64,000 nt of DNA from Escherichia phage FL12: the sequence record PP400786. One strand, written 5' to 3'. The position numbers were made by a program, and so were the translations under genes. The notes below the pieces were generated by a model. The model saw only the letters and a program-made list of their open reading frames with translations. It was not told where the DNA came from and made no database searches. Every line of letters begins with the position of its first letter. The first letter of the stretch is position 1. Shown piece by piece: positions 21,938 through 26,974 of the stretch.

Positions 21938-24900
21938 ATGGCTACTTTAAAACAAATACAATTTAAAAGAAGCAAAACCGCAGGTGCACGTCCTGCTGCT
22001 TCAGTATTAGCCGAAGGTGAATTGGCTATAAACTTAAAAGATAGAACAATTTTTACTAAAGATGATTCAGGAAATATCATTGATCTAGGTATTGCTAAAG
22101 GCGGCCAGGTTGATGGTGATGTGACTATCAATGGTAAATTAACATTAAATGGCGCGTATGTTCAGACGCTGGCTGGTATTAATACCACGGGTGGTATTAA
22201 TTCTGGGGCCGCTATAAGTGCAACAACTTATTATGCTCGGTCTGGTTCTTTTTATGCTCGTGCTCCAGATGCCAATGCGAATACACATATTTGGTTTGAA
22301 AATAACAATGGTATAGAACGTGGTGTGATTTGGGCTGTTCCGAACACTTCAGACCTTGGCCAGGTCAAAATTCGTGCAAAAACTACAGGTGGTGTTTTTG
22401 CCGGCGAGTACAGTTTCCGCTCTGATGGCCAATTTGAGGTTCCTGTAGCAGTTAAAATCGGCGGGGCCGCGATGCTAACCAAAGACGGTAACATTACATC
22501 GGGTTCATTGTTTGGTGGTAATCTTAATAACTATTTGAATACCATTAAAAATGACATTGTTACTGGTGATAATAAGAAAGTGAGTAAAACCGGTGACACG
22601 ATGTCCGGTAACTTGACTATTAACGCTAACTTAAAAGTCGAAAACTCTAACGGAACGTTTGTTGATTTAGGTTCAGAGAACTCTGATAAGAATAGCAGAT
22701 TAACTCTTGCTCGTAAAATTGGCGATGGCGCTGGTGTAGCAATGCTTAAAGTTACTCCTGAAGGAAACGTGCAATTTGGTTATCAACCTACAGTTGCTAC
22801 TCCATCTCCTACCAAGTATATTCTAATTAAATCTAACGGTCTTGAAGTAGAAGGGGATTTAGTTTTTAAGCAAACTTACCGTGGTGTTGAAGAAGCAGTT
22901 GATATTACTAATCAGACTATTGACCTTAATAGCCTTATTATTAGAGGATCAGATTTAGGTACTCGTAAGCTGTATAAATGCAGATCATCTGGAGGTGGTT
23001 CTAATATATTGAACAAACCTACATCTGATGGCAACTTTACTCTTGAAGTTCTGTCTTTACGCAAGGTTTCTGATACCGATTGGTCATGTAAGCAGACCTT
23101 TACTACAAAGAACAATAATGTTGTAGGCGTATATGTTCGCTACGGGCAAGTCGGCTCATGGACTGAGTGGAAAGAGGTTGTTGCTGGTGTTCAACCAATT
23201 AATTTAGGTGGTACTGGAGCAACTTCTGTAGCTGCTGCCCGTAATAACCTTGGTGTTGGTGAAGGCCAAACTGTAACATTCGGTAATTTAGTTACCAACA
23301 ATTTAAATGCAAACGGACAAGTTAAAATCGGCAGGACCGGCGATGCATTAAGAATTTGGAATGCTGAATATGGTGCTATTTTCCGTCGCTCAGAAACAGC
23401 ATTACATATTATCCCGACTCCTAAAGACGCCGGTGAAAGCGGTGGAATAAGTAATCTTCGTCCATTAAGTATCGGCCTTAATAATGGTATGGTGCAAATG
23501 CGTCATTCTGTTGAGTTAGGCGATGATGGAGCTGGCGGTAATATGATTACTGTTGATAATGATAGTAAAAATGTTGTGATAACTTCTAATGCCAGATTAA
23601 GCCCTAATTTCCGCATGCAATTAGGGCAGGCGTCGTACATTGATGCCGAATGCACTACCTCTGTTCGCCCTGCTGGAGCTGGTTCATTTGCTTCACAGAA
23701 TAATGAAAACGTTCGTGCCCCGCTCTATATGAATATTGATAGGACTGATAATAGTACTTATGTTCCTATTTTAAAACAACGTTATGTTCAAGGAAATAGC
23801 TGTTATTCTTTAGGTACTTTAATAAATAACGGTGATTTTCGTTTACATTACCATGAAGGCGGCGACGGTTCTTCGACAGGTGCAGTTATAAAAGATATTT
23901 CCTGGGAATTTAAACGTAATGGTGATTTCTATTCTCCGGGGCGTTTGCGCACTGCAAACGTTTATATCGGAACTGATGGTAACATTACAGGTGGTTCTGG
24001 TAATTTTGCCAACTTAAATACCACGTTAAACCGTAAAGTTAATGTTGGCGGTTGGGCTGGTAGTTCTTATGGTGGATGGTACAAATTTGCTACGGTAACA
24101 ATTCCTCAAGGTACTGGTACAGTAACTTTTAAGATTTCTGGTGGTGCTGGTTTTAATTTTAAAAGATATAGCCAAGCTTCTATTGCTGAGATAGTTCTTC
24201 GCACAGGTAATAATAATCCTAAAGGCATAAACGCTGTACTATGGAACAGGTCAGACCTAAGTTTTAATCAGATAGCTACTATGAATACATCTGGTGATAC
24301 TTATGATGTATACGTGTTCTGTGACGGTTATACAAATGCATTAGTGGTTGAATATTCTTGTAGTGAAAACTCTTCGGTAACTGTAGTCGGTCTTAACGGA
24401 GGCATTCAACCGGCTGTTGATGCATTGCCTGAGGGACATGTTGTAGGTAAAACAGTTCGTCTGTTAAATAATATTGGCGGAACTTTCGCAGCCGGCGAAT
24501 CTGACATTGTTACTCGTGGTGAATACGTTACTGATAATCAAAAAGGCATGCGTATTAAATCTAACGGTAATAATATCGGTTCTAATGCTGCTATACTTCG
24601 AAATGACGGCAGAAGTTTTTATATTTTAGCTACAGATAAAAATACAGCAGAAAAATCCGATGCAGCTAATGGTGATTGGAACTCATTGCGTCCTTTTACA
24701 ATAAGCATGACTACCGGTGAAGTATCAATGAATAACGGCATAACTGTTCGTAACTATGCCACATTCTATAATGATATTGTTCTCAAAGATAATGGTTATA
24801 TTCACTTTAATAAGTCTGGCAATAATCCAAGAAACATGAGTATATTCCATGCCGGAGATGCCACACGTGGTAACCGTATTGAAATTGCTGATGATTCAAG

Positions 24901-25477
24901 TTATTTAGTTTATTTTCAACGTTTACCGGGCGGCGCTAACCAGTGTACATTTAACTCTGCTGCTCTTTCTGGTATAACGCAGACTAACTCTTTTGGTGTC
25001 AATACATCAAACGCACTTGGTGGAAATAGTATAACGTTTGGTGATAATGACACTGGTATTAAGCAAAATGGTGATGGATTATTAGACATATATACGAACA
25101 GCGTACAAGTGTTCCGTTTCCAAAACGGTGATTTGTACTCATACAAAAATATAAATGCTCCAAACGTTTATATTCGTTCTGATATTCGTTTAAAATCCAA
25201 CTTTAAACCTATCGAAAATGCACTCGATAAAGTTGAAAAACTTAACGGTGTCATTTACGATAAAGCTGAATACATCGGTGGAGAGGCAATTGAAACTGAA
25301 GCGGGTATTGTGGCTCAAACGTTACAAGACGTTTTACCAGAAGCTGTCCGTGAAACAGAAGACAGTAAGGGTAATAAAATACTCACTGTTTCTTCTCAAG
25401 CCCAGATTGCTCTTCTGGTTGAAGCTGTGAAAACACTTTCTTCTCGTGTAAAAGAACTTGAATCTAAACTTATGTAA
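21938..25477 (+). CDS. 37: long tail fibre distal subunit with C-terminal intramolecular chaperone domain
   Basis: MATLKQIQFKRSK...; conserved ...RIWNAEYGAIFRRSE... and ...RMQLGQASYIDAECT...; C-terminus ...SDIRLKSNFKPIENALDKVEKLNGVIYDKAEY... Confidence 0.85.
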   Translation: MATLKQIQFKRSKTAGARPAASVLAEGELAINLKDRTIFTKDDSGNIIDLGIAKGGQVDGDVTINGKLTLNGAYVQTLAGINTTGGINSGAAISATTYYARSGSFYARAPDANANTHIWFENNNGIERGVIWAVPNTSDLGQVKIRAKTTGGVFAGEYSFRSDGQFEVPVAVKIGGAAMLTKDGNITSGSLFGGNLNNYLNTIKNDIVTGDNKKVSKTGDTMSGNLTINANLKVENSNGTFVDLGSENSDKNSRLTLARKIGDGAGVAMLKVTPEGNVQFGYQPTVATPSPTKYILIKSNGLEVEGDLVFKQTYRGVEEAVDITNQTIDLNSLIIRGSDLGTRKLYKCRSSGGGSNILNKPTSDGNFTLEVLSLRKVSDTDWSCKQTFTTKNNNVVGVYVRYGQVGSWTEWKEVVAGVQPINLGGTGATSVAAARNNLGVGEGQTVTFGNLVTNNLNANGQVKIGRTGDALRIWNAEYGAIFRRSETALHIIPTPKDAGESGGISNLRPLSIGLNNGMVQMRHSVELGDDGAGGNMITVDNDSKNVVITSNARLSPNFRMQLGQASYIDAECTTSVRPAGAGSFASQNNENVRAPLYMNIDRTDNSTYVPILKQRYVQGNSCYSLGTLINNGDFRLHYHEGGDGSSTGAVIKDISWEFKRNGDFYSPGRLRTANVYIGTDGNITGGSGNFANLNTTLNRKVNVGGWAGSSYGGWYKFATVTIPQGTGTVTFKISGGAGFNFKRYSQASIAEIVLRTGNNNPKGINAVLWNRSDLSFNQIATMNTSGDTYDVYVFCDGYTNALVVEYSCSENSSVTVVGLNGGIQPAVDALPEGHVVGKTVRLLNNIGGTFAAGESDIVTRGEYVTDNQKGMRIKSNGNNIGSNAAILRNDGRSFYILATDKNTAEKSDAANGDWNSLRPFTISMTTGEVSMNNGITVRNYATFYNDIVLKDNGYIHFNKSGNNPRNMSIFHAGDATRGNRIEIADDSSYLVYFQRLPGGANQCTFNSAALSGITQTNSFGVNTSNALGGNSITFGDNDTGIKQNGDGLLDIYTNSVQVFRFQNGDLYSYKNINAPNVYIRSDIRLKSNFKPIENALDKVEKLNGVIYDKAEYIGGEAIETEAGIVAQTLQDVLPEAVRETEDSKGNKILTVSSQAQIALLVEAVKTLSSRVKELESKLM

Positions 25478-25479
25478 AA

Positions 25480-25495
25480 GAGGGCTTCGGCCCTC
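25480..25495 (+). other. RNA hairpin between genes 37 and 38
   Basis: GAGGGC-UUCG-GCCCUC; weak U-tract, so more likely a structure element than a strong terminator. Confidence 0.35.
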
Positions 25496-25507
25496 TAAGG
25501 ATTTTTA

Positions 25508-26287
25508 ATGGCAATTGTAGGTGTTCCTGGCTGGATTGGCGAATCTGCCGTGAATGAAACCGGACAACGTTGGATGGATGCTGCGATGAGAGCTGTTCGT
25601 GTTTCAGTTCCCGGTTGGATGAGCTCAATGGCTGGACAATCTAAAGAAATTATTCACACGCTTGGAGCAGACCATAACTTCAATGGTCAATGGTTCCGAG
25701 ATAGATGTTTTGAGGCAGGTAGTACACCTATAGTGTTTAATATTACAGGTGATTTAGTATCATATTCTAAAGATGTTCCTTTATTCTTCATGTATGGAGA
25801 TACACCGAATGAATATGTTCAGTTGAATATACACGGCGTAACGATGTATGGACGTGGCGGTAATGGCGGTAGCAATAGTCCTGGCTCAGCTGGAGGTCAT
25901 TGTATTCAAAACGATATTGGTGGGAGACTAAGAATTAATAATGGTGGAGCTATTGCAGGCGGCGGCGGCGGCGGCGGCGGCGGTAACAGGGGTAGACTAG
26001 TATTTGGTGGCGGCGGTGGTCGTCCATTTGGTGCTGGTGGGTCTTCCTCTCATATGAGTGCTGGTGCAACCGCTGGCACCATTTACGCTCCGGGTGCAGG
26101 ATCTGTCGGTGAGGGGTCTCTTAGTGCATATACAGGCGGGTCTGGTGGTGAAGTTGGCTCCGCAGGAGGTAGATGTAATACTCACGGTGCCGGTACAGAA
26201 TATAACGGCGGTGCTGCCGGTTATGCCGTCATAGGATCTACACCGACATGGCAAAACGTTGGAGCAATATATGGTCCAAGAGTATAA
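25508..26287 (+). CDS. 38: T2-type receptor-recognising adhesin with glycine-rich motifs
   Basis: [23 protein letters not shown]... N-terminus; poly-Gly segments [28 protein letters not shown]. Confidence 0.85.
25958..25984 (+). repeat. (GGC)8-GGT trinucleotide tract encoding Gly9 within gene 38
   Basis: Read directly: ggcggcggcggcggcggcggcggcggt. Confidence 0.9.
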
Positions 26288-26317: not shown

Positions 26318-26974
26318 ATGGCAGCACCTAGAATATCATTTTCGCCCTCTGATATTCTATTTGGTGTTCTAGATCGCTTGTTCAAAGATAACGCTACCGG
26401 GAAGGTTCTTGCTTCCCGAGTAGCTGTCGTAATTCTTTTGTTTATAATGGCGATTGTTTGGTATAGGGGAGATAGTTTCTTTGAGTACTATAAGCAATCA
26501 AAGTATGAAACATACAGTGAAATTATTGAAAAGGAAAGAAATGCACGCTTTGAATCTGTCGCCCTGGAACAACTCCAGATAGTTCATATATCATCTGAGG
26601 CAGACTTTAGTGCGGTGTATTCTTTCCGCCCTAAAAACTTAAACTATTTTGTTGATATTATAGCATACGAAGGAAAATTACCTTCGACAATAAGTGAAAA
26701 ATCACTTGGAGGATATCCTGTTGATAAAACTATGGATGAATATACAGTTCATTTAAATGGACGTCATTATTATTCCAACTCAAAATTTGCTTTTTTACCA
26801 ACTAAAAAGCCTACTCCCGAAATAAACTACATGTACAGTTGTCCATATTTTAATTTGGATAATATCTATGCTGGAACAATAACAATGTACTGGTATAGAA
26901 ATGATCATATAAGTAATGACCGCCTTGAATCAATATGTGCTCAGGCGGCCAGAATATTAGGAAGGGCTAAATAA
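26318..26974 (+). CDS. t: holin
   Basis: 218-aa ORF MAAPRISFSPSDILFGVLDRLFKDN... with one TM segment. Confidence 0.9.
   Translation: MAAPRISFSPSDILFGVLDRLFKDNATGKVLASRVAVVILLFIMAIVWYRGDSFFEYYKQSKYETYSEIIEKERNARFESVALEQLQIVHISSEADFSAVYSFRPKNLNYFVDIIAYEGKLPSTISEKSLGGYPVDKTMDEYTVHLNGRHYYSNSKFAFLPTKKPTPEINYMYSCPYFNLDNIYAGTITMYWYRNDHISNDRLESICAQAARILGRAK

Follow-up and report, generated by a model that had tools for sequence, protein, structure and literature searches.

Work that aims to predict or re-engineer which hosts T-even phages infect has a main target in the gp38 adhesins, and two of these have been described at the level of structure. In gp38 of phage S16, the glycine-rich motifs (GRMs) fold as polyglycine-II (PGII) helices and build a three-layer sandwich; the motif 151-GGGGGGGG-158 is "helix 3," central among the ten motifs and held in a saturating backbone hydrogen-bond network with the neighbouring helices, while the hypervariable segments between the motifs form distal loops that are the proposed receptor binders (PMC6851490). 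The N-terminal tryptophans of gp38 dock into the gp37 trimer (PMC6851490). In PP01 gp38, loop B (residues 158-170) governs adsorption (PMC12892980), and experimental evolution of this phage selected Y159H, Q161H and N163H within that loop (PMC6027323). More generally, the adaptive or host-range changes known from gp38 affect the loops, as point mutations or as swaps, and not the number of glycines (PMC12892980, PMC3157838, PMC6027323), and deletions of whole GRMs gave no viable T6 recombinants (PMC3157838).

The GRMs of T-even phages have also been proposed as crossover sites at which loops are exchanged (Tetart et al., 1998; Trojet et al., 2011, PMC3157838). Phage FL12 carries an OmpA-dependent "type 2" adhesin, has a narrow host range and accepts OmpA variants 1, 3, and 4; the study that described it regards the GRMs as a conserved scaffold and leaves the DNA repeat that is our subject here unmentioned (PMC12032242). 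This repeat, a perfect (GGC)8 tract, lies in gene 38 of the window (the whole stretch of phage DNA that was analysed, 64,000 nt in length).

The glycine run of gene 38 and its place in the adhesin

Gene 38 of the window is the gp38 adhesin of the T2/T6/S16-type Straboviridae. Its product matches the Pfam profiles (PF05268 + PF21721) GP38, at E=1e-69 and 235 bits, and Gp38_N, at E=3e-18 and 66 bits, both against a cut-off of 25, and its sequence matches in the PDB are 9V85, the PP01 adhesin (E=2e-79), and chain D of 6F45, the S16 adhesin (E=3e-50). The gene order (g37, g38, holin t) is annotated in the same way in BF15, Ac3, NBG2, and others, and the N-terminal tryptophan W9 is present in all of 58 gp38 homologues and W22 in at least 90% of them. 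Compared at the protein level, the window gp38 is 100% identical to the FL12 adhesin (P0129; 0 differences), so that the receptor and narrow host range reported for FL12 apply to it as well; an exact-protein look-up in the contig index gave no match, and the sequence is listed as FL12 in the protein cluster. The features that matter for what follows are these:

21938..25477, + strand: gene 37 (1179 aa), distal subunit of the long tail fibre; its C-terminal part is a Peptidase_S74 chaperone domain (context)
25508..26287, + strand: gene 38 (259 aa plus stop), coding for gp38, the adhesin that recognises the receptor (ORF list, Pfam, PDB matches)
25508..25633, + strand: N-terminal domain for attachment (residues 1-42); it caps the trimer of gp37 and has Trp9, Trp22, and Trp37 (span of Pfam Gp38_N)
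25958..25981, + strand: perfect (GGC)8, coding for Gly151-158, glycine-rich motif 3 (GRM3, "helix 3") by homology to PP01 9V85 and S16 6F45
25982..25984, + strand: GGT, coding for Gly159, the ninth glycine and predicted first residue of the distal loop-B hairpin (HMMER alignment, DSSP on the model)
25985..26005, + strand: loop B, or hypervariable segment 2, Asn160-Phe166 (NRGRLVF), the distal receptor-facing tip
26006..26020, + strand: the next glycine-rich motif, GGT GGC GGC GGT GGT, coding for Gly167-171
26318..26974, + strand: holin t, 218 aa (Pfam Phage_holin_T, E=7e-118)

The sequence from 25955 to 25987 reads GCA-(GGC)8-GGT-AAC, in frame with the gene 38 ORF, and the eight GGC codons and the GGT together encode Gly151-Gly159. 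An earlier sequence-only reading of this DNA had described a perfect (GGC)8 plus GGT that codes for nine glycines in the adhesin gene, and coordinates, frame and Tandem Repeats Finder (array 25958-25983, period 3, 8.7 copies, matches 100%) all agree with that description; the GGC-GGC-GGT-GGT cluster that it had placed 25 nt past 25984 is likewise present, as part of the glycine block at 26006-26020.

The tract stands out within the window, which has 35% GC: it is the only trinucleotide run of at least four units in the 64 kb, and (GGC)5 with at most one mismatch is confined to it (0 expected, 100 shuffles). On the gene's own usage, eight successive GGC codons are unexpected, since GGC makes up 12 of the 54 glycine codons of gene 38 outside the run. 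At the same nine codons in the 26 other alleles of this length, the position-wise frequency of GGC is 0.35-0.88, which gives a probability of about 0.029 per allele for the all-GGC state and an expectation of about 0.8 perfect-GGC alleles by chance among 27. The perfect state is thus close to what chance would deliver from the codon frequencies of the family, and a special selective explanation is unnecessary. A glycine run is to be expected at this position, and its perfect GGC form is an occasional state.

By alignment, Gly151-158 correspond to the G8 of both PP01 (9V85) and S16, and Gly159 to the Tyr that opens loop B of PP01. An AlphaFold2 model of the window gp38, built on the 58 homologues, has a mean pLDDT of 87.8 (mean 97 over the 10-residue block 151-160) and matches 9V85 (TM 0.88, rmsd 2.1 Å) and 6F45_D (TM 0.78), with no other match in the PDB. 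Sequence pattern and model together describe a protein in which glycine-rich motifs alternate with hypervariable segments and form a polyglycine-II sandwich on a beta-helix. In this model, DSSP leaves residues 151-158 unclassed, as expected for PGII, and pairs the strand 159-161 with 164-167 as a beta-hairpin. By homology and in the model, Gly151-158 make up the middle PGII helix in the "polyglycine sandwich," part of its buried structural core, and Gly159, alone of the nine glycines, is predicted to belong to the receptor-facing loop B. Since Gly159 starts this distal loop, a change of one unit could touch the receptor loop.

The run resembles GRM3 of S16 gp38 (6F45; Dunne et al., 2018; PMC6851490): it has the same residue numbers, it stands after the conserved R-I-N-N-G-x-I-x, and an all-glycine central PGII helix leads into a distal loop, behind which comes a G5 block. 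The two proteins differ in that the window has G9 where S16 has G8, in the loop (NRGRLVF against FRVGHTEA of S16) and in the receptor, which is E. coli OmpA for the window protein and Salmonella OmpC for S16; their identity is 44%. PP01 gp38 (9V85; PMC12892980) shares 67% identity, a TM of 0.88 to the model, the context of AIA followed by the glycine run, and loop B directly after the run. Here the differences are that the run of PP01 is G8, with a loop of 13 residues (YSQANNWAGKYVC) behind it, and its receptor OmpC, whereas in the window protein a ninth glycine takes the place of the Tyr and the loop has seven residues. On present evidence the tract is an ordinary, previously described motif in a published protein, with a modest twist, and is not a demonstrated host-range switch.

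We also considered a regulatory or antisense role for the tract and dropped it: at the tract, the opposite strand carries no antisense ORF, and no promoter- or terminator-like sites overlap the repeat.

Length of the run across the adhesin family

Among 120 cluster representatives of the family, the homologous run is G9 in 56, G8 in 34, G7 in 14, and G6 in 8. Its length goes with the kind of loop behind it: every representative with an NRGRLVF-like, YYSP-like or YWxA-like loop has G9 in front of it, and loops of the T2/PP01 type and the IAYRPHSG type are preceded by G8, G7 or G6. The next glycine block is G5 in all 112 representatives that match the motif, and the exceptions to G5 at this block are P0126 (a Gly-to-Asp change), P0166 (G4), and a divergent NSADGGM subgroup.

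Because clustering at 90% would mask indels of a single residue, the individual members of ten clusters were listed, and G9 was retained in about 102 of the 104 members that were informative. Departures from it in the G9 classes are P0157 (G8), P0104 and P0166 (both G6), and P0060 (G4), about 4 of 160 distinct proteins. In this loop class, about 97% of the alleles thus keep nine codons; each exception is a contraction, and runs longer than nine glycines did not occur among the alleles of the class. A BLAST screen of curated phage genomes with a 181-nt query gave 28 records that span the region, and at the tract itself none of them has an indel. In partial hits, two apparent deletions of 3 nt (PaulHMueller and CMS-2020a) were artefacts of gap placement, both having nine codons, and the additional 3 nt of Ac3 lie outside the tract, as an extra Leu codon downstream. 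The sequence-only reading had turned on length variation among populations or related isolates; such variation exists among the relatives as rare whole-unit contractions, set against nine codons in nearly the whole class and in 28 of 28 curated genomes.

The constancy of length among isolates could in part reflect shared ancestry, and the 21 DNA haplotypes behind it (below) speak against this. Its cause is most plausibly purifying selection. Nine would be the number kept in this loop class, again most plausibly, since side chains and a shortened helix alike would be more than the core of the sandwich can take.

Taken together, the reading that we favour and regard as likely is that of a constrained structural element (GRM3 plus the first residue of loop B) written in mutable DNA, the count of nine codons being held by selection. 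At the DNA level, the GGN run would behave as a perfect or imperfect microsatellite; replication slippage, probably along with short-patch recombination between co-infecting phages, would reshuffle the order of the GGN codons and now and then gain or lose whole units. In the protein, the backbone hydrogen bonds to adjacent helices in the sandwich would leave no room for side chains. Selection on the fold would purge nearly all changes of length, so that the count stays fixed at nine while the synonymous pattern drifts fast. The all-GGC state of the window would be one transient outcome of this process, and its allele may be somewhat more prone to slippage than its interrupted relatives. If so, the glycine run combines a load-bearing central helix, with a residue count fixed per loop class, and coding DNA that is unusually unstable, and this instability would bear on how gp38 adhesins evolve.

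Turnover of the codon pattern and the part of recombination

The 27 unique G9 DNA alleles, all of equal length, carry 21 different patterns of GGC, GGT, GGA, and GGG. The purity of the window tract is not conserved (0 of the 26 other G9 alleles are perfect), and the tract differs by one synonymous change from that of IME340 and by two from that of BF15.

Two close-pair tests, with both flanks controlled, superseded a comparison of synonymous divergence over all pairs (0.39 vs 0.24-0.30), which was weakly informative on account of saturation and mosaicism. In seven independent pairs of close alleles, 18 of 63 third positions of the tract differ, as against 33 of 765 fourfold sites elsewhere (Fisher p=2.7e-9). 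In flank-controlled pairs (50-codon flanks on each side, both at most 10% diverged at fourfold sites), differences were found at 22 of 667 flank sites (3.3%), at 23 of 108 third positions of the tract (21%) and at 3 of 60 in the G5 block (5%). The GGN pattern of the tract therefore changes at 6-7 times the rate of fourfold sites in the rest of gene 38. Individual cases show the same: five kvi-like alleles that are 97-99.6% identical have five distinct tracts and identical downstream sequence.

These data support the tract as a hotspot at the DNA level, by slipped-strand events or by recombination. To this extent the earlier proposal of a slipped-strand hotspot has held up, through the fast turnover of the GGN pattern and through the in-frame unit variants described below (L117, L016, L175/L176, and L023); as to mechanism, we infer slippage to be the main one, and it is inseparable here from short-patch recombination.

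Some of the tracts have perfect periods of 3, 6 or 9 nt, such as (GGTGGC)4 in kvi and (GGCGGCGGT)3 in BF15. With rough permutation odds within alleles of about 1-4% each and some 25 alleles, this periodicity fails multiple testing and was set aside.

It could be argued that the tract is above all a landing pad for recombination, in which the DNA similarity of GRMs supplies microhomology for loop exchange and the scrambled codons and indels are by-products of crossovers; we consider this unlikely as the main explanation, though there is a good deal of recombination to be seen at the locus. Between the window and its closest relative, L118, there are 7 differences before nt 492 of gene 38 and 39 after it, so that divergence jumps at the tract, and of 17 comparisons, 4 place the best breakpoint within nt 441-492 (the one with L118, and three others at nt 441-453); most of the remaining ones break near nt 138, where the attachment domain ends. 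In P0054, the protein switches to another within the run. Unequal exchange between the tract and the G5 block has occurred in both directions, as a perfect tandem duplication of 51 nt, loop plus G5, in L001 and in PYps47T (P0184; the middle block here being G6, not G5), and as a deletion of the loop between the two blocks in P0024, P0027, and P0031. Such mosaic boundaries and unequal exchanges at the tract and the next glycine block are what the modular recombination described for T-even GRMs would lead one to expect (Tetart et al., 1998; PMC3157838).

Recombination thus contributes to change at the tract, but it is not easily reconciled with changes of pattern between identical flanks or with clean losses of 3 and 9 nt. 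The window and BF15 differ at 0 of 60 fourfold sites in the flanks and at two of nine tract codons; L105 and L106 differ at 0 of 62 flank sites, and such identical-flank pairs differ at 2-3 of nine tract codons. Where the tract differs between flanks that are identical on both sides, recombination would have to cross over twice within 27 nt. The G5 block, likewise a GRM, has no excess of turnover, deletions of whole units (3 nt and 9 nt) are classic products of slippage, and the perfect (GGC)8 does not maximise identity with other alleles. Trojet et al. recovered 0 GRM1-GRM5 exchanges among 14 chimeras (PMC3157838). In contrast to the crossovers described for T-even GRMs, synonymous turnover at constant length and unit contractions between near-identical alleles fit slippage within one genome better; in the literature on T-even adhesin recombination that we examined, we found no description of within-genome slippage at GRM codons.

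Whole-unit variants and the receptor-binding loop

Departures from nine codons, where they occur, can be followed in a few assemblies. The tract of L117 (P0157) is (GGC)7-GGT, one codon below its nearest G9 relative, L173, and one GGC below the window; outside the tract, L117 and L173 differ by 3 substitutions, and within it by the deletion of one codon and one T-to-C change. L117 has the sole other perfect GGC tract in this loop class and is also its sole G8. L016 differs from L022 by a 9-nt in-frame deletion in the tract and 5 SNPs in 1.1 kb (both from one accession series, with the same contig ends). L175 and L176, two independent ENA assemblies, have (GGCGGCGGT)2 where their relatives have three units; their next block is G4, and an extra A upstream shifts the frame of the gene, so that together the frameshift and the G4 block make this resemble a decaying copy. 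L023, finally, has G4 before the usual loop. In its AlphaFold2 model, pLDDT falls below 50 at residues 152-157, the hairpin is lost and confidence in the sandwich is lower, which suggests damage more than a switch, with the reservation that AlphaFold2 confidence follows the alignment and is a weak proxy for stability, so that this model lends weak support only.

These length variants come from SRA and metagenome assemblies (Logan, ENA), and at least one of them could be an artefact of assembly or sequencing. Scans of further metagenomes added little: the pattern A-I-A + (GGC)7 gave 50 hits in JGI metagenomes, none of them gp38-like; the "GAIA-Gly6" context gave 77 hits in IMG/VR, about 20 of them gp38; and a perfect-tract scan returned L081 alone, which was already known.

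Simple-sequence contingency loci are known in bacteria, where slipped-strand events produce phase and antigenic variation, and poly-G tracts occur in some phage receptor-binding-protein genes. The window tract resembles them in being a short perfect tandem repeat in a surface-recognition gene, with natural variants of unit number. It differs in that its purity is unselected, its length strongly conserved and its residues part of a buried core rather than an exposed epitope; in addition, a change of one unit stays in frame and so gives no on/off switch.

The sequence-only reading had suggested that slips could alter the length of the glycine motif in frame and in this way vary the receptor-contact loops. 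Extended to frequent slips that would broaden the host range of a population by changing the reach or shape of these loops, this becomes an adaptive contingency tract, which we think improbable. It is true that the C-terminal end of the run adjoins the distal loop B, beside the sites of the adaptive changes Y159H, Q161H, and N163H, that the one other perfect GGC tract of the loop class is the only G8, and that run length varies from 6 to 9 between adhesin classes with different loops and receptors. The perfect tract also has the higher hairpin potential: as single-stranded DNA, its G-rich strand folds at -12.5 kcal/mol (z=-2.2), as against -7.7 for BF15 and -6.8 for kvi, both of which are interrupted. 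The perfect state is, however, no more frequent than chance predicts and is not conserved; the run is never longer than nine, and it is exactly nine in all the curated plaque-forming isolates that were screened. One of the contractions sits in a frameshifted gene and another models poorly. With eight of the nine residues predicted to lie in the core PGII helix, length near-invariant and the reported host-range or adaptive mutations being loop substitutions or swaps, the suggestion that the run varies the receptor-contact loops finds no support in the comparative data.

A narrower version would be that rare one-unit slips are functional. An all-glycine helix can slide in register, and a slip of one unit would then make the loop-B hairpin one residue longer or shorter; a change from G9 to G8, as in L117, might in this way alter the hairpin and retune which OmpA variants are bound. 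We hold this to be a long shot. If it were true, it would amount to in-frame, reversible fine-tuning of a receptor-binding protein, most active in perfect-repeat alleles such as that of the window, and would offer a simple and testable case of a viral receptor-binding loop being tuned in frame by a microsatellite.

On the reading that we favour, with the length of the run constrained and its DNA mutable, there are two practical consequences. When gp38 is engineered, recoding the run with mixed GGN codons should stabilise the tract, and indels at the tract in assemblies should be read as artefacts or defective alleles.

That the perfect tract of the window or the length variants of its relatives are as a whole errors of sequencing or assembly in low-complexity DNA is very improbable: the length variants are indeed found only in Logan and ENA assemblies of public runs, and GC-rich triplet repeats are liable to polymerase stutter, but the window protein equals the independently deposited FL12 protein, the tract of 24-27 nt is below the usual assembly k-mers, the same contraction is present in the independent assemblies L175 and L176, P0157 is recorded in both Logan and NCBI, and all of the variants are whole-unit and in frame.

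Repeat, duplication and loss around loop B

The repeat itself had already been noticed in a database record, although without interpretation, since in gene 38 of phage kvi (MN850615) the depositors marked 26 bp as a "repeat_region" (615-640 of the compared locus L116, corresponding to 91749-91774 of the record) at the homologous tract, there reading (GGTGGC)4GGT. The glycine blocks on either side of loop B, which separates the nine-glycine (G9) tract from the five-glycine (G5) block, are also where whole loops have been gained and lost. In gene 38 of one allele (L001, 1951-2079), the loop YYSPFSQMRLTF and the G5 block are duplicated in tandem, perfectly, over 51 nt, with the duplication junctions lying within GGCGGTGGCGGCGG, a sequence that the G5 block has in common with the last part of the G9 tract. 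This allele and another of the loci compared (L038) lie on a single contig (IMGVR_UViG_2974787500, 167,948 nt). This same duplication is present in the adhesin of Yersinia phage PYps47T (P0184), except that the middle block there has six glycines (G6).

The opposite change is found in three other gp38 proteins (P0024, P0027, and P0031), in which the entire loop from the G9 tract to the G5 block is absent and the protein reads AIA-G4/6-RPFG, and two further natural gp38 variants (P0114 and P0116, 212 aa) are without a larger stretch between glycine-rich motifs. These deletion variants are the reciprocal products of the duplication seen in L001 and PYps47T.

Exchange of the adhesin and of the fibre tip

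In most allele comparisons, the strongest mosaic breakpoint fell at about 25645 of the window, i.e., at about nt 138 of gene 38, where the N-terminal attachment domain ends. It thus appears that the attachment domain goes with the gp37 type, while the remainder of the adhesin is swapped separately. Two features of the window belong to gene 37 and to the gap that follows it:

21938-25477, + strand: gene 37; residues 1081-1138, at the C-terminal end of its product, form a Peptidase_S74 intramolecular-chaperone domain
25479-25496, between genes 37 and 38: terminator-like hairpin (AGAGGGC-TTCG-GCCCTCT), then a T-rich tail

The window's gp37 thus ends in its own chaperone domain, whereas T4 gp37 requires separate chaperones. 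In the record of phage G2133, the depositors annotated a putative terminator in the same gap.

The pair is also found well outside the T4-like phages. "Escherichia phage CMS-2020a" (CP053388.1; L171), circular and 107,648 nt long, carries a gp37-like fibre (Gp34_trimer plus Peptidase_S74) and, next after it, a gp38 adhesin whose G9 tract is the same, and clusters P0034 and P0036 show this arrangement on Salmonella-associated contigs of ~224 kb. Neither the ~108-kb circular element nor the ~224-kb contigs are T4-like, clearly so; the fibre-tip module (gp37-like fibre and gp38) has been transferred between very different phages.

Possibly distant or decaying forms, and a chimera

A-I-A-G7 also occurs inside very glycine-rich ORFs of two metagenome contigs (Ga0209792_1000118, 113 kb, L126 2735-2764; Ga0099364_10000723, 56 kb, L127 2017-2046). 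The gp38 context pattern had no match in either ORF; they might be distant fibre tips of a polyglycine type.

Gene 38 of two ENA assemblies (ERZ28619779 and ERZ27280826; L175 and L176) has an extra A close to its 5' end (GCAAGGTCGC), causing a frameshift in the attachment domain; the tract is reduced to (GGCGGCGGT)2 and the following block to G4. With gp37 upstream and the holin downstream, as in T4-like phages, this looks like an adhesin gene in decay in an otherwise T4-like context. Finally, one 303-aa protein (P0054) follows the gp38 N-terminal part as far as six glycines of the tract and then continues into a gp37-like C-terminus with Peptidase_S74, either because recombination joined the two within the tract or because of a misassembly.
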